A stretch of 4,093 nucleotides of DNA from a virus (taxonomy: Duplodnaviria; Heunggongvirae; Uroviricota; Caudoviricetes): IMG/VR virus record IMGVR_UViG_2541047427_000008; one strand, written 5' to 3'. Made by a program: the position numbers and the translations under genes. The notes beneath the pieces were generated by a model. That model did no database searches, was not told the origin of the DNA, and worked only from the letters and a program-made list of their open reading frames with translations. Positions 1 through 4,093 of this stretch are shown piece by piece; position 1 is the stretch's first letter; every line of letters starts with the position of its first letter.

Positions 1-468
1 GGCGCGATGACTGAACAGCAAATCCGGCAGGTCTGCCGTCAGTGCATGGACCGCTGCCGGGCGGGTGAAACGTGGCCTCCGGACCTGGCTGAGTTTGTGG
101 CGTTGATTTCGGAGAGCGGGGCAAATCCATTTGGCCTGACGGTGGATGCCGTGATGGAGGAGTACCGTCGCTGGAGGAATGAATCCTGGCGGTACGACGG
201 GAGTGATAAATACCCGTGGCCACAGCCGGTGCTGTACCACATTTGCCTCGAGATGCGTGACAGAGGGATTGAGCGGCAGATGACGGAAGGTGAGTTAAAA
301 CGACTTGCAGAACGGCAACTGACGAAATGGGCAAAGCAAGTTGGTAACGGGATGAGTATTCCCCCGATCCGGAGACAACTCGCATCGCCGAAGTGCCCGC
401 AAGGGCCAACGCCAATTGAATTACTGAAACAGGAATACGAGCGCCGGAAGGCGGCTGGTTTTGTTTGA
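1..468 (+). CDS. Lambda P-family replication protein (helicase loader), C-terminal part; 5' end lies outside the window
   Basis: Frame 1 is open from base 1 to the TGA at 466-468, so the ATG at 7 is probably internal. The translation shows blocks recalled from lambda P's C-terminal half (PPDLAEFVALI, SDKYPWPQPVLYHIC, MTEGELKRLAERQL). Position just upstream of nin-like genes fits. Similarity is from memory, not a search. Confidence 0.7.
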   Translation, partial: GAMTEQQIRQVCRQCMDRCRAGETWPPDLAEFVALISESGANPFGLTVDAVMEEYRRWRNESWRYDGSDKYPWPQPVLYHICLEMRDRGIERQMTEGELKRLAERQLTKWAKQVGNGMSIPPIRRQLASPKCPQGPTPIELLKQEYERRKAAGFV

Positions 469-501
469 ATCTGAGAAACGATTTTGTCGGAGGAAATTTT
501 A

Positions 502-1218
502 ATGGAAACCGTATCTGACGCACTGAAAGCACTGAAAAGAGCCTCTTCACATGTGGTGGCAGCTCGCCTTGGAATTAGTCGTGAAGAGGCTGTCAACGAA
601 CTGTGGAAACTGAAACGCCGTGGAGAAGCGGATAACAAGGGGGCGATATGGTGGCTGACTCAGGCTGGTGAAAGTGAACCGGTGTCACCGGTACCGAAAG
701 TGACGGCGCAAATGCTGACAGAGGCGATTGAACAACATGGCCCACAAACGGCGGATGAACTGGCATTGATGTTCGGAATTACCTCCCGCCGGGCGAATTC
801 ATCGCTGGCAATGGCAATCAGCAAAGGGTGTCTGATTCGCGTGAATCAGGATGGTAAATTTCGTTACTGCATACCGGGCGTTGATTTACCGGCAGAGCCG
901 AAAGCAGCATCCGTAGCTGAAACGGAGGGTAAAGCCCTTCCTCAGCCAGCTGGTGTTGCGTTACCAGTCCAGGAAACGGCTGCACAGGAAGAAATTAAAA
1001 CAGAAGCGGTGGAGGACATTGTGAAGTTGCAGCAATCGTTCACTGAAGCGAAAGCAGATGACCTGATTCTACCATCGCTGCATGTGGCTAACCGCGAGCT
1101 GCGCCGGGCGAAAAGTAATGTTCAGAAGTGGGAGCGAGTCTGTGCTGCGCTACGGGAACTGAACAAACACAGGGATATTCTCCGGGATATTACCGCCACC
1201 AGAGAGCAGCAGCGGTGA
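502..1218 (+). CDS. Phage protein, DUF1627-like, with two winged-helix-like segments and a coiled-coil C-terminus
   Basis: ATG at 502 preceded by GGAGG at 488-492 (9-nt spacing); the track's start at 484 is a TTG and less likely. 239 codons ending at TGA 1216-1218. HTH-like segments [19 protein letters not shown] and [27 protein letters not shown]1627 label is recollection and unverified. Confidence 0.75.
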
Positions 1219-1532
1219 GTGGCTGGAAGAAGTGGCGCTGGGCTGAAATCCTGATACTCCGGCAGTGTGCGGGAACGATGAGAGTCGAAAGCATCGGTTA
1301 TCTGATTGGCCGTAGTGAGTCAGCCGTCAGGACGAAAGCGCGGGAACTGGGTATCAGCATGATGTTACGGGGTGATTATCACCAGTCAGCCAAATGTTCA
1401 CAGCGTGATATTGAGCTGGCGTGGCAACTGCATCAGCGTGGTGTACCCCGACGGGAAATTGCCGAAAAGTTTGGGATGAAGTTGGGCGCAGTGAATAACT
1501 ACGTTTATTTCGACAGGAGGGTTCAGGAGTGA
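1215..1532 (+). CDS. Small protein with two helix-turn-helix motifs (putative DNA-binding regulator)
   Basis: In-frame GTG at 1215 overlaps the upstream stop (GTGA at 1215-1218), suggesting translational coupling; alternative ATG start at 1278. Motifs [21 protein letters not shown] and [18 protein letters not shown] resemble sigma-70 region 4 / LuxR-type HTH. The part of the track ORF upstream of 1215 overlaps the previous gene and is probably not translated. Confidence 0.65.
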
Positions 1533-1831
1533 GGGTGAGGGTTTATATCGCCGGTCCGATGACGGGATATGAAAATTTTAACCGCGAGGCATTTCACAAA
1601 ACGGAAGAGGTGCTGAAACGGGAAGGGCATACCGTTTTAAACCCGGCAGTACTTCCGGACGGGCTGACTCAGCCACACTACATGGATATTTGCATGGCAA
1701 TGCTCCGTTGCGTGGATGCGGTTTACATGCTGAAAGGCTGGCAGCAGTCGGCAGGTGCAGGGGCTGAGCTGGCACTGGAGGAGAAACCGGGCCATGCGGT
1801 GATTTTTCAGGAGGTGGGCAGTGAATATTGA
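1529..1831 (+). CDS. DUF4406 / nucleoside 2-deoxyribosyltransferase-like protein
   Basis: GTG at 1529 overlaps the upstream TGA (1530-1532); alternative GTG at 1535 with GGAG at 1526-1529. N-terminal VYIAGPMTGYENFNREAFHKTEEVLKREGHTVLNPA matches the family hallmark as I recall it. 100 aa. Confidence 0.8.
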   Translation: MRVRVYIAGPMTGYENFNREAFHKTEEVLKREGHTVLNPAVLPDGLTQPHYMDICMAMLRCVDAVYMLKGWQQSAGAGAELALEEKPGHAVIFQEVGSEY

Positions 1832-2138
1832 CCCGGCGATAACGATTGATATGGCCCTGAACGCCGGCCTGGCACTTCTTGGTTATTTCTACATTATGTT
1901 CTGCAGCGGACGATGGCTGTCACTGTTGTTCATGAAAAAATGGAATAAACGCCGTAAGCAGGAGCAACGCCAGAAGGCAATGGATGCATTTTTCGAAGCC
2001 TTCGGAATTGACGGCATGGAACCAGGGGATCCAGCTCGCGCAATCAGCAGAGGGGGTGTAGTAATCCTTGTATATCGGAGTGAAGAGAAAAATGACGATC
2101 ACAAAACAACGTGTAGAAGAAATCATATCCCGCATTGA
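1821..2138 (+). CDS. Small membrane protein: one N-terminal transmembrane helix followed by a basic segment
   Basis: GTG at 1821 with GGAGG at 1809-1813 (7-nt spacing), overlapping the upstream gene end by 11 nt. Hydrophobic ITIDMALNAGLALLGYFYIMFCSGRWLSLLF followed by KKWNKRRKQEQRQK. The 3' part overlaps the next gene, so true extent is uncertain. Confidence 0.5.
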   Translation: MNIDPAITIDMALNAGLALLGYFYIMFCSGRWLSLLFMKKWNKRRKQEQRQKAMDAFFEAFGIDGMEPGDPARAISRGGVVILVYRSEEKNDDHKTTCRRNHIPH

Positions 2139-2409
2139 AATGTATGGACATGGTGCAGGGTATATCGCAGACGAGGTTAATGATCTGGCTATACTGGCGC
2201 TGAATTTATCAAATATCGCGAACCTGAAGCGATACGAGCTTGATATGGGAGGTTGCGACTCGTGCGGTCAGGATTGTGGCGCTGATATGACTGAAGATCC
2301 TGATGGTGATTATGTCCTGTTTGATGACGTGGTTAAGTTGTTTGAATTTGATACAACCACTCAAAAGTTAGAAATCCCGGCAAAGGAGGCAGCCAGTGGG
2401 CAAGATTGA
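2092..2409 (+). CDS. Hypothetical strongly acidic protein with a C-x2-C-x3-C motif
   Basis: ATG at 2092 (MTITKQRVEE...); the track start at 2068 is a TTG, and an ATG at 2140 is an alternative. About 22 Asp/Glu versus about 8 Lys/Arg in 105 aa by my hand count. Motif CDSCGQDCG. Ends at TGA 2407-2409. No family recognised. Confidence 0.6.
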   Translation: MTITKQRVEEIISRIEMYGHGAGYIADEVNDLAILALNLSNIANLKRYELDMGGCDSCGQDCGADMTEDPDGDYVLFDDVVKLFEFDTTTQKLEIPAKEAASGQD

Positions 2410-2833
2410 CTATCAGGCACTGCGTGAGGCAGCACAAAACTATCAATCGACGCTGGCGTGGTATCAGGCTACCCCGGACAGCCCAAATGCTGAACGGGAT
2501 TGTGATGCGGCTCTTGCTGCGTTTAAGCGTCACATCCGTCATCGGGAAGCGGATATTATCGCTGATTTGCTGGATGGACTGGAAGAAGCAAAATCACAAC
2601 TCAACGAGCAGCGTGAGTATTACGAAGGCGTTATCTCTGATGGGAGCAAGCGTATTGCTGAACTGGAAGCGCGGGAAGTTCAATTACCGACTCGCTACGA
2701 CCTTCGATATGGACACCCGATAAATGCAGATGAGCGACATGTCATGATACCTAAAGAAAATGGCAGTTGGCTTTACCTGATTGACCTAGAACACGCATTA
2801 CGCGTCGCTGGCATTCGCATCAAAGGAGAGTGA
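2396..2833 (+). CDS. Hypothetical protein with a central coiled-coil-like segment
   Basis: GTG at 2396 with AAGGAGG at 2383-2389 (6-nt spacing), overlapping the upstream gene by 14 nt. 145 aa with heptad-like IADLLDGLEEAKSQLNEQREYYEGV...RIAELEAREVQL. Faint resemblance to Ead/Ea22-like prophage proteins, not assertable. Confidence 0.65.
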   Translation: MGKIDYQALREAAQNYQSTLAWYQATPDSPNAERDCDAALAAFKRHIRHREADIIADLLDGLEEAKSQLNEQREYYEGVISDGSKRIAELEAREVQLPTRYDLRYGHPINADERHVMIPKENGSWLYLIDLEHALRVAGIRIKGE

Positions 2834-2834
2834 G

Positions 2835-3026
2835 ATGAACGGACAAATATCAATTGTTCGACCAGGAGCATGTGACGATCGCGAAATACGAATGATTATT
2901 CGTCTGGCGATGGGGAAAACAATAACTGCTCTCATTACTCCAGAAAATCTCGCATTAGCATTAACAGGAAAGTCAGACATGCCAGTAGAGCTAAAGCTGC
3001 GAAATGTTGAGATTAAGGTGAAATAG
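2835..3026 (+). CDS. Hypothetical small protein (63 aa)
   Basis: ATG at 2835 one base after the upstream stop (TGAGATG), with AAGGAGAG at 2822-2829. Ends at TAG 3024-3026. The overlapping - strand ORF 2798-3070 has no start context and antisense-like composition. Confidence 0.55.
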   Translation: MNGQISIVRPGACDDREIRMIIRLAMGKTITALITPENLALALTGKSDMPVELKLRNVEIKVK

Positions 3027-3028
3027 CT

Positions 3029-3586
3029 ATGACCACTATTACCAAAGATCGACTGCTGACAATCCAGCATTGGCGCGAAACATACGGACCGGGTAGCAAC
3101 GTTGTGCTTCCAGCAGAAGAAGCGGAAGAGCTGGCACGGATTGCGCTGGCATCACTGGCAGCAGTATCGGATGAACGAGCAGCCTATGAATTATTTATGG
3201 AGAAGCGTTTCGGAGAATCTGTAGATCGCCGCAGAGCAAAAAATGGCGATAGAGAATACATGGCATGGGATATGGCGCTTGGCTGGATTATCTGGTGTCA
3301 CCGCGCCGCCATGCTTCAGGCTGGAAACTTTCGGGAAAATAAGGGTTCGTCAACCAATAATTTTCGGATAATCTCGGAAACGTCAACCAACTCTCCGGCA
3401 ATCCCTGATGAGGTGTTGTCCGCAATCCTGAAGGTCGCCAGGCTTCGTGCAGATTTCGATGCTTCTGAAGTGGACAGGCGAGGTATCGGTAGTTGTCTGG
3501 ATGAGGCCGAGCAAGAACTTATCGTTACCATTAACGAATACGCCAGTCAGATCGCAGTAGAAGCGACACAGGGGGAGAACCAATGA
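3029..3586 (+). CDS. Hypothetical protein (185 aa)
   Basis: ATG at 3029 two bases after the upstream TAG, with AAGGTGA at 3013-3019 as a possible ribosome-binding site. Contains an internal imperfect tandem repeat. Ends at TGA 3584-3586. No family recognised. Confidence 0.65.
   Translation: MTTITKDRLLTIQHWRETYGPGSNVVLPAEEAEELARIALASLAAVSDERAAYELFMEKRFGESVDRRRAKNGDREYMAWDMALGWIIWCHRAAMLQAGNFRENKGSSTNNFRIISETSTNSPAIPDEVLSAILKVARLRADFDASEVDRRGIGSCLDEAEQELIVTINEYASQIAVEATQGENQ
3326..3391 (+). repeat. Imperfect tandem direct repeat of 2 x 33 bp inside the 3029-3586 CDS
   Basis: Units 3326-3358 and 3359-3391 match at about 22 of 33 positions by hand alignment, each ending in an identical CGTCAACCAA (3348-3357 and 3381-3390). 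Confidence 0.5.
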
Positions 3587-3660
3587 GCCGGCCAGATGCA
3601 TTTGCAGGCGTTGCTATAGCTATTGCTTTTCTAGTATATGTTATTTGTCGGTGGGGGTAA
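3583..3660 (+). CDS. Putative 25-aa hydrophobic mini-protein (MSRPDAFAGVAIAIAFLVYVICRWG)
   Basis: ATG at 3583 overlaps the upstream stop (ATGA at 3583-3586), preceded by GGGGGAG at about 3572-3578. Single hydrophobic stretch; stop TAA 3658-3660. Not in the ORF track, presumably below its length cutoff. Short ORFs arise by chance, so this is tentative. Confidence 0.35.
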   Translation: MSRPDAFAGVAIAIAFLVYVICRWG

Positions 3661-3695
3661 AAACGTTCGCCGGGATTCACACCAAGGGAGGGAAT

Positions 3696-3800
3696 ATGTC
3701 GGATGATATTTCACTGGTAATGGAAGGCGCTCTGGCTGTTATTGCTGTTGTGGGTGTTTACTGCCTGGTTGTGTTTTTGATGGAGCGCCTGGGGAACTGA
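3696..3800 (+). CDS. Putative 34-aa single-pass membrane peptide (MSDDISLVMEGALAVIAVVGVYCLVVFLMERLGN)
   Basis: ATG at 3696 preceded by AAGGGAGGG at 3684-3692 (about 4-nt spacing). Acidic N-terminus then a roughly 20-residue hydrophobic helix; stop TGA 3798-3800. Not in the ORF track. Confidence 0.45.
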   Translation: MSDDISLVMEGALAVIAVVGVYCLVVFLMERLGN

Positions 3801-3810
3801 ATTCATTCCG

Positions 3811-3826
3811 TATGGGAATTCCCATA
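3811..3826. repeat. 16-bp perfect palindrome TATGGGAATTCCCATA, possible dimeric protein-binding site
   Basis: Exactly self-complementary, centred on GAATTC. Sits between the 34-aa peptide stop (3800) and the predicted hok promoter -35 (3841). No downstream U-run, so not an intrinsic terminator. Confidence 0.6.
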
Positions 3827-3840
3827 TCGGGCAAAACGGT

Positions 3841-3868
3841 TTGCTGTAAAGCGAGAGTTAAGTAGAAT
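3841..3868 (+). promoter_or_regulatory. Predicted sigma-70 promoter for the hok-like mRNA
   Basis: -35 TTGCTG (3841-3846), 16-bp spacer, -10 TAGAAT (3863-3868). Predicted start near 3875, just before GCTTGAGGCT (3879-3888), which matches the 5' end of plasmid R1 hok mRNA as I recall it. Confidence 0.5.
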
Positions 3869-3874
3869 TGCTGC

Positions 3875-4043
3875 GGGTGCTTGAGGCTGTCTGCCTCGGG
3901 CATGCCACCGTAAGGCAGACAGAGAAAAGCCCCAGTTAACATTACGCGTCCTGCAAGACGCCTAACATTAATCTGAGGCCAATTTCATGCTAGACACATG
4001 TAGGTTAGCCTCTTACGCGCCGAAAGGCAAGGAGAAGCAGGCT
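3875..4043 (+). other. Structured 5' leader of the hok-like mRNA, including a 10-bp stem and a mok-like upstream start
   Basis: Inverted repeat CTGTCTGCCT (3887-3896) / AGGCAGACAG (3913-3922) with a 16-nt loop. Downstream blocks AGCCTCTTACGCGCC and GCAAGGAGAAGCAGGCTATGAAG resemble hok-family leaders. ATG at 3987 with GAGG at 3975-3978 is in frame with the hok ATG. Confidence 0.55.
3930..3995 (-). ncRNA. sok: Predicted Sok-like antisense RNA (antitoxin of a type I toxin-antitoxin pair)
   Basis: By analogy with R1 hok/sok. Minus-strand promoter-like elements: -35 TTGCCT (complement of 4025-4030), 17-bp spacer, -10 TAACCT (complement of 4002-4007). Transcript would cover the mok-like start region. 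A short hairpin GCGTC-N6-GACGC is present, but ends are guessed and no clean terminator is seen. Confidence 0.35.
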
Positions 4044-4093
4044 ATGAAGCAGCAAAAGGCGATGTTAATCGCCCTGATCGTCATCTGTATTAC
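4044..4093 (+). CDS. hokD: Hok/Gef-family type I toxin, HokD/RelF-like; first 16 codons only, truncated by window end
   Basis: ATG at 4044 preceded by AAGGAGAAG at 4029-4037. Translation MKQQKAMLIALIVICI matches the HokD/RelF N-terminus as I recall it (MKQQKAMLIALIVICLTVIV...). Confidence 0.85.
   Translation, partial: MKQQKAMLIALIVICI

Follow-up and report, generated by a model that had tools for sequence, protein, structure and literature searches.

The window analysed here is a stretch of 4,093 nucleotides (nt) from a virus of the Caudoviricetes (IMG/VR record IMGVR_UViG_2541047427_000008). Our subject is a block of four genes at positions 2092-3586 (1495 nt), labelled g1 (2092-2409), g2 (2396-2833), g3 (2835-3026), and g4 (3029-3586), all on the + strand. 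An original prediction, made from the letters alone, had described four tightly coupled open reading frames (ORFs) of no recognisable family and had interpreted them as a horizontally acquired cargo cassette. The four ORFs are present on the + strand at the claimed coordinates, which RefSeq also gives in a 99.8%-identical prophage of Escherichia coli O157:H7, and the claimed junctions are correct, with a g1/g2 overlap of 14 nt and gaps of 1 nt between g2 and g3 and of 2 nt between g3 and g4. A Shine-Dalgarno sequence precedes each of the four starts. The statement on families was wrong: all four proteins match PHROG families of unknown function, with expectation values (E) from 1e-15 to 1e-66, g2 belongs to the Pfam family Ead_Ea22, and g4 is EaA/DUF551-associated. 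The block is very probably a hypervariable, dispensable accessory region of 'ea-type' early genes in a Rac-like lambdoid prophage. Its genes and modules are the following.

2092..2409, + strand: g1, 105 amino acids (aa), isoelectric point (pI) 4.1, net charge -14; phrog_3126, E = 2.5e-66
2396..2833, + strand: g2, 145 aa, Ead/Ea22 family; Pfam PF13935
2805..2837, + strand: mosaic junction ..GCTGGCATTCGCATCAAAGGAGAGTGAGATG, with the 3' end of the Ea22-type gene, the Shine-Dalgarno sequence, and the g3 ATG
2835..3026, + strand: g3, 63 aa, basic, pI 9.5; phrog_1222, E = 1e-40
3029..3148, + strand: g4 head, aa 1-40, MTTITKDR...ELARIAL, EaA-type N-terminal module; phrog_3323, E = 1e-14
3149..3343, + strand: g4 middle module, aa 41-105; phrog_660, E = 2e-21, and phrog_60, E = 4e-19
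3401..3586, + strand: g4 tail module, aa 125-185, acidic, predicted helical hairpin; phrog_14306, E = 1.5e-34

A prophage that matches 95% of the window length at 99.3-99.4% identity occurs in 278 complete E. coli genomes, most of them O157:H7. In strain FRIK1989, the matching prophage adjoins potC and begins with int, xis, racR, a helix-turn-helix (HTH) gene, ydaT, the DnaT-like gene, P, DUF1627, a further HTH gene, DUF4406, and DUF4752; these are followed by g1-g4, a small hypothetical gene, hokD, DUF968, rusA, the antiterminator Q, and the lysis genes. Within this Rac-like lambdoid prophage, the block occupies the part of the rightward early operon that is flanked by replication genes (DnaT-like, P) on one side and by hokD/DUF968/rusA/Q on the other, and the nin-like placement proposed earlier holds. 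Among otherwise similar prophages the gene content between P and Q varies, and in related Rac-like prophages the interval from DUF1627/DUF4406 to hokD differs in content. The tight coupling of g1-g4 is real but does not set the block apart, since close packing spans 1215-3660: the genes upstream overlap by 4, 4, 11, and 47 nt, and an ATGA overlap follows at the g4 stop.

Analysis of g2 indicated that residues 3-65 match Pfam Ead_Ea22 (PF13935) at E = 2.2e-13, with 51.4 bits against a gathering cut-off of 27, and BLASTP aligned g2 with lambda Ea22 at E = 3e-17. Features of lambda Ea22 and its family (P22 EaD, 933W L0069, and Phi24B Ea22) recur in g2, namely the N-terminal segment ..IDYQALREAA.., the coiled-coil stretch LNEQREYYEGVISDGSKRIA, identical to that of lambda, the terminal AGIRIKGE, and the junction DNA. 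At the DNA level, g2 and lambda ea22 are near-identical across the coiled-coil core and nearly or fully identical in the final 30 nt. We regard g2 as an Ead/Ea22-family protein, with a coiled coil predicted from its likeness to lambda Ea22. The two proteins differ in length (145 aa in g2, 182 aa in lambda Ea22) and have unrelated C-terminal regions: beyond residue ~108, g2 does not align to lambda Ea22 save for the last 8 residues, and no sequence match at E up to 1 was obtained to the solved C-terminal domain of lambda Ea22 (a mixed alpha-beta dimer) or to any PDB chain. Because variable C-terminal parts are a known feature of the Ea22 family (PMC10834534), the missing lambda-type domain would rule out only the lambda subtype for g2. 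A Pfam MucB_RseB match in g2 (2588-2743, residues 65-116; 23.6 bits, cut-off 22.3) covers 51 residues within the coiled coil and was judged spurious. One g2 homologue, in the O111:H8 strain 05-3004, is named sigma-E factor regulatory protein RseB domain-containing, and this name is probably misleading.

The position of g3 is best described as a slot between an Ea22-type and an EaA-type gene. Among 60 distinct g3 neighbourhoods, the upstream ORF ends in ...GI(R)IKGE or a close variant in 58, and the downstream ORF has an MTxITK head, the g4 middle module, or the DUF551 motif in ~55. The junction DNA GGCATTCGCATCAAAGGAGAGTGAGATG is conserved across the g3 neighbourhoods, and the junction at 2805..2837 is identical in lambda at the end of ea22, where lambda retains it but lacks g3. 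The g3 protein has no Pfam match, and its homologues form 88 clusters in Enterobacteriaceae prophages, plasmids, and phage Av-05. A programmed +1 frameshift fusing g2 to g3 at the g2 stop was considered but seems unlikely: GAG could not re-pair in the +1 frame, and the P-site codon is overlapped by the Shine-Dalgarno sequence. Inspection of the g2/g3 junction suggests ordinary coupling by termination and reinitiation. Ahead of the g3 ATG, the junction (2831-2837) has no stop in the g3 frame (..AFASKESEM..), and therefore a one-base frame change would fuse the Ea22-type protein to g3. Four clusters of such Ea22-g3 fusions were found (P0329-P0332), each on 1-7 contigs only, with that of P0331 accounted for by a single-base change in the conserved junction. 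As 'Rosetta stone' evidence the fusions were given little weight and were treated as sporadic frame changes. A profile search with g3, covering 1.84 billion representatives, found 79 proteins, including the Ea22-g3 fusions and some longer proteins with a g3-like N-terminal domain. Its matches to Flg_new/InlB B-repeat surface proteins and to an RCC1-repeat protein sum 7-11 bits per repeat over near-identical repeats, and homology was rejected; the reverse search of g3 against Pfam found nothing. The repeat pattern D.E[IV]..[IV]....G.TIT....PE......G.S[DE].P obtained with the g3 profile (P0340, P0358-P0361) is probably an artefact and offers a weak lead only.

Comparison of g4 with its relatives points to a modular protein of the EaA family, in which DUF551 is replaced by an acidic helical module from residue 125 or 126. 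The g4 head is 42.5% identical to the N-terminus of P22 EaA over 40 aa (a weak match, E = 0.006), and heads are swapped among g4 homologues (P0002, P0003, and P0029), with P0003 combining an EaA head and the g4 middle module. The middle module (..SDERAAYELFMEKRFGESVDRRRAKNGDREYMAWDMALGWIIWCHRAAM.., ~65 residues) is near-invariant and occurs in thousands of prophage proteins; columns 47-94 of a 43-sequence alignment are invariant, and no Pfam-A model spans the module. The g4 homologues form more than 7,000 clusters, most of them named DUF551 proteins, and most carry a C-terminal DUF551 (PF04448, as in YfdS of CPS-53), whereas the window g4 has the other, acidic helical module, matches no Pfam family at E up to 1, and lacks the C-terminal ..HWMPLPEPP motif. 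The O157:H7 copy of g4 ends in DUF551 with this motif, and its DUF551 tail matches EaA at E = 1e-11; through head and DUF551 end, the family connects with P22 EaA and 933W L0065. Members of the family are built from a swappable head, the middle module, a Ser/Thr/Asn-rich linker, an optional acidic helical module, and a DUF551 or other end. In longer relatives (P0001, P0003), the tail module sits between the middle module and DUF551, while the window g4 ends after the optional module; its ending ...ATQGENQ recurs in P0002, P0004, and 369 E. coli genomes.

Upon comparing the window with the O157:H7 potC prophage (L001), we found 99.8% identity over positions 1-3404, no alignment over 3405-3596, and renewed alignment at 96.6% over 3597-4093. 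The recombination breakpoint at 3404/3405 coincides with the module switch point of g4, and the second edge lies at 3596/3597. In 369 E. coli genomes, a second Rac-like prophage carries a gene 100% identical to the g4 tail, and this prophage co-occurs with the potC prophage in the same strains, for example CDC#03-98 (hits H40 and H62). The window g4 is a recombinant, and these relationships suggest exchange between resident prophages. The IMG/VR contig 2541047166_000009 (L005) has the same arrangement as the window.

The g1 protein has no Pfam match, and its 248 homologues, all at least about 72% identical, come from E. coli and Salmonella phages. BLASTP aligned g1 with g4 at 31% identity over 81 aa (E = 2e-5), and profile-profile comparison by hhalign gave a probability of 82% (E = 1e-5), covering roughly the first 80 residues of g4. 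On these alignments, g1 appears to be a short, diverged, and very acidic relative of the N-terminal half of g4. The proteins g1, g2, and g4 are all acidic, with the charge reaching -12 in the 59-aa tail of g1 and -8 in the tail of g4. A CxxCxxxC motif in g1 was rejected as a metal site, Cys58 being often Phe among the homologues. The gene also occurs on its own in a non-lambdoid phage, Shigella phage DS8, amid small early genes.

Co-inheritance was examined in up to 80 IMG/VR loci per anchor gene (304 in all), in which 27 marker proteins were located, and co-occurrence was counted among distinct neighbourhoods with at least 2 kb on either side. All four genes are found together in 4 of 52 neighbourhoods anchored on g1, 3 of 42 on g2, 3 of 48 on g3, and 4 of 53 on g4, and these low figures are conservative, because the locus sample favours close relatives. 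Some piece of the block is carried by 2,339 of 5,426 complete E. coli genomes, at 4,806 places; at least 80% of it is contiguous in 278 of the 2,339, and the whole block in none. With these counts, the proposal of one acquired cassette whose genes travel as a unit fails. The four genes rarely occur together, prophage content differs, and g1 stands alone in DS8, which argues that the block is not a cassette. In line with the original prediction, the genes are accessory and mosaic and not core components of replication or recombination.

The order of an Ea22-type gene, a small gene, and an EaA-type gene recurs in leftward operons adjoining xis and int. The leftward operon of PhiR49_2 contains DUF4752, g1, Ea22, g3 ... 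xis-int, and in mEp460 an ORF in the Ea22 position (annotated as hypothetical and assigned by position alone) is followed by g3 and then by a g4-like gene. The P22 genes eaD, eaI, and eaA have the same order: an EaD-type end ..GI(K/R)(V/I)KGE, a gene of ~63-64 codons, and then a protein starting MTTITK(E/D)R...ELARIALASL. EaI resembles g3 in slot and size without being homologous, P22 EaA and g4 have different interiors, and the third protein of P22 and of most g4 relatives ends in DUF551, which the window g4 lacks. In 933W, the series runs from L0069 (Ea22) to L0065 (EaA-like), with three unrelated small genes filling the slot. The pattern is best read as the classic lambdoid exchange of gene and sub-gene modules at short conserved boundary sequences.

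Base composition had been cited as a further mark of acquisition. The GC content of the block is 48.0%, against 53.7% for the four upstream genes (7-1831), and at third codon positions (GC3) it is 43.6% against 55.8% (chi-square p = 7e-5). The two also show a modest difference in synonymous codon usage (the observed statistic was reached in 61 of 2000 permutations). The lower GC, although real, is slight, and it extends beyond the block: the drop starts one gene earlier, at the DUF4752 gene (1821, 47.2%), and persists to the window end (48.9%). Per-gene GC in the prophage is 0.501 +/- 0.045, and 27% of 1495-nt prophage windows have a GC of 48.0% or less. The deviation is unremarkable, because the block lies close to the prophage mean and the replication module is the GC-rich exception; the GC and codon-usage comparison that had been proposed did separate the block from its upstream genes, but the dip is ordinary for the prophage.

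Searches of NCBIfam with g1-g4 gave nothing above noise, and sequence searches against PDB chains gave no meaningful match. The AlphaFold2 model of g4 (43-sequence alignment) is all-helical with a mean predicted local distance difference test (pLDDT) score of 57.4; the tail hairpin alone reaches 70-82 and is the best-modelled part. The g1 model (41 sequences) has a mean pLDDT of 53.4, and Foldseek of both models against PDB returned nothing below E = 0.9. A consensus scan identified no promoter-like site on the coding strand of the window and no terminator-like site in the block or at its edges; the only + strand terminator-like sites are weak and lie outside it, at 443 and 1903. Together with the coupled starts, this crude scan fits a view of g1-g4 as early-operon passengers that would be silent in the lysogen.

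Experimental data on this kind of gene come from Ea22. Deletion of ea22 in lambda and Phi24B shortens the latent period, raises the burst size, and lowers host survival, and in lambda it additionally reduces lysogenisation (PMC7093339). The Ea22 protein forms a tetramer and combines a coiled coil with acidic C-terminal domains that vary, one variant carrying DUF551 (PMC10834534); tetramer formation and the pro-lysogenic effect are known only for the Ea22 proteins of lambda, Phi24B, and P27 (PMC7093339, PMC10834534). The single Ea22 of Phi24B corresponds to two genes in 933W (PMC8614690), and a CRISPR interference screen found ea22 non-essential (PMC10695390). In the literature on the Ea22-like and DUF551 families and on P22 eaA/eaD, we found no functional study of g1, g3, or g4 homologues.

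As judged from sequence, the family assignments, the sub-gene mosaicism with conserved junctions, the missing co-inheritance, and the missing transcription signals of the block's own are established. Reasonably probable is the fuller explanation that these are ea-type mosaic genes modulating the host and the lysis-lysogeny timing. The genes would be transcribed only by read-through of the early operon upon infection or induction and translated as a coupled chain. By analogy with lambda and Phi24B Ea22, the products would be small oligomeric proteins, most of them acidic, that modulate host physiology by binding other proteins and adjust when lysis or lysogeny is entered, with the variable C-terminal modules determining the target. 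How g1-g4 work is more tentative: that they act as early, dispensable, protein-binding modulators of lysis-lysogeny timing or host physiology is possible, with the odds somewhat against it. Several points weigh against this interpretation. The experimental data for the family concern Ea22 only, so that a role for g1-g4 would be assigned by extension, and transfer of function is uncertain, g2 having a different C-terminal region and the isolated lambda C-terminal domain being inactive. The ea-type genes of lambda, P22, 933W, and many other phages belong to the leftward operon, in the exo-xis or 'ea' region (lambda ea22 lies between exo and xis), whereas g1-g4 sit in the rightward operon, with g2 after the replication genes. 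The poor models of g1 and g4, with no fold match, leave a protein-binding mechanism structurally unsupported, and the scan that found no promoter-like site on the + strand anywhere in the window is crude. A more ambitious version, in which the Ea22-type, small, and EaA-type trio forms a single modular early host-targeting machine with g1 as a cut-down paralogue, seems to us rather unlikely. In such a machine, a coiled-coil oligomer would display interchangeable acidic modules that neutralise variable host defence or stress-response factors. If true, it would account for the swapping of heads, tails, and the middle gene at conserved junctions, combined with a slot order that P22, lambda, and Rac-like prophages share whichever early operon holds the genes.

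The original prediction raised anti-defence or host interaction as roles of the block, and such a role is possible. In its specific form, the small acidic early proteins would inhibit host immunity, for example through g1 mimicking DNA to counter restriction or other defence proteins that bind DNA, and exchange of the g4 and Ea22 heads and tails would keep pace with variable host targets. The charge of -14 in the 105 aa of g1 and the acidic tails of g1 and g4 suit this idea, as do the extensive sub-gene module exchange typical of arms-race genes, the placement in the early operon, the occurrence of g1 in the unrelated phage DS8, and the DUF551 signature in phage MazZ, a dATP/dGTP pyrophosphohydrolase that inhibits host restriction enzymes (PMC10834534). 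Acidity by itself, however, says little; the low-confidence g1 model gives no trustworthy DNA-like charge array, searches of Pfam, PHROGs, and NCBIfam matched none of the four to a characterised anti-defence protein, and the experimental data on Ea22 indicate developmental timing and not defence escape. We consider counter-defence unlikely, although not negligible. The block might alternatively encode replication-linked accessory factors that modulate host or phage replication initiation, like yfdQRST of CPS-53, where overproduction of the DUF551 protein YfdS contributes to inhibiting DnaA-dependent initiation (PMC4776307). The link of YfdS/DUF551 to initiation is joined here by location: the block directly follows the DnaT-like, P, and DUF1627 genes, and g2 lies beside DUF4406 in 42 of 42 g2-anchored neighbourhoods and at most 2 kb from P in 23, in a sample biased to close relatives of the window prophage. 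The window g4 lacks DUF551, though, only YfdR among YfdQRST bound DnaA (PMC4776307), and elsewhere the same genes lie far from replication genes, in leftward operons by xis and int, which makes a replication role improbable.

Two further explanations concern the origin and fate of the block. The cassette view of the original prediction, an autonomous acquired cargo (moron) giving the lysogen superinfection exclusion or a new defence function, can draw on GC and GC3 values below those of the replication module, on the presence or absence of the region among related prophages, and on the adjoining hok/sok addiction module. It is quite improbable given that the four genes are seldom together, that the consensus scan placed neither promoter- nor terminator-like sites at the coding-strand boundaries of the block, that the GC is ordinary for the prophage, and that the same genes reside in repressor-controlled early operons of other phages. 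PADLOC-DB, moreover, gave zero matches (E up to 0.1) with the eight proteins encoded from 502 to 3586. That the four genes are decaying, functionless remnants of a defective prophage is the least credible of the explanations, and very improbable. Pseudogenes do lie near the block in the host prophage, where an exonuclease gene is truncated and an internal stop disrupts a TerB gene, and g4 lacks the DUF551 domain carried by most relatives, but the four ORFs are intact and have Shine-Dalgarno sequences, and hundreds of loci preserve them undamaged, as do functional phages including PhiR49_2, mEp460, and the Shiga toxin (Stx) phages; the recurrence of the DUF551-less ending in P0002, P0004, and 369 genomes also speaks against decay.

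The block can also be compared with the nin region of lambda (ren, ninA to ninI), which likewise lies between the replication genes and Q and consists of chained, dispensable early genes that overlap or abut (PMC10695390). The gene content of g1-g4 is of the leftward 'ea' region type, unlike that of nin; no match was found between g1-g4 and the Nin or Ren families in Pfam, NCBIfam, or PHROGs, and position between P and Q alone is common. The suggestion that the block might hold an undescribed system does not stand, as its families are already catalogued (Ead/Ea22, EaA/DUF551-associated, and several PHROGs). The block is best classed as an ordinary, already catalogued kind of lambdoid mosaic accessory region. 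The result mostly removes a false lead, the block being typical lambdoid mosaic 'dark matter'. It also documents ea-type genes in the rightward operon of Rac-like E. coli O157:H7 prophages, a widespread slot order of Ea22-type, small, and EaA-type genes with a conserved junction, a large EaA-family middle module without a Pfam model, and, in g1, an apparent diverged relative of the EaA-like family. In Stx phages, Ea22 acts on both lysis timing and lysogeny; by analogy, g1-g4 could affect prophage induction in enterohaemorrhagic E. coli (EHEC).

The remaining features of the window flank the block.

1529-1831, + strand: DUF4406 gene, also matching phrog_355 (annotated nucleoside 2-deoxyribosyltransferase), E = 4e-43
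1821..2138, + strand: DUF4752 gene; Pfam DUF4752, E = 7.5e-39; GC 47.2%
3583..3660, + strand: mini1, unannotated 25-aa hydrophobic ORF MSRPDAFAGVAIAIAFLVYVICRWG, whose ATG overlaps the g4 stop (ATGA)
3696-3800, + strand: 34-codon ORF, hydrophobic acidic peptide; RefSeq hypothetical in the O157 prophage
3875-4049, + strand: sok, Rfam sok family, 116.9 bits, E = 4e-27
4044 to window end, + strand: hokD reading frame, running off the window

The DUF4752 gene is a frequent upstream partner of g1, adjoining it in 19 of 52 distinct g1 neighbourhoods and in phage PhiR49_2, while the DUF4406 gene adjoins g2 in every g2-anchored neighbourhood, as described above. Downstream, mini1 is kept in 52 fetched loci, also after g4 genes of the DUF551 type; L001 has MIWPEAFAITGVAIAIDFLVYVICRWG with the same ATGA overlap, and an internal stop interrupts mini1 in seven loci. 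The 34-codon ORF adjoins hokD in many related loci, whatever lies upstream. The sok match and the hokD frame together indicate a type I toxin-antitoxin module directly downstream of the block.

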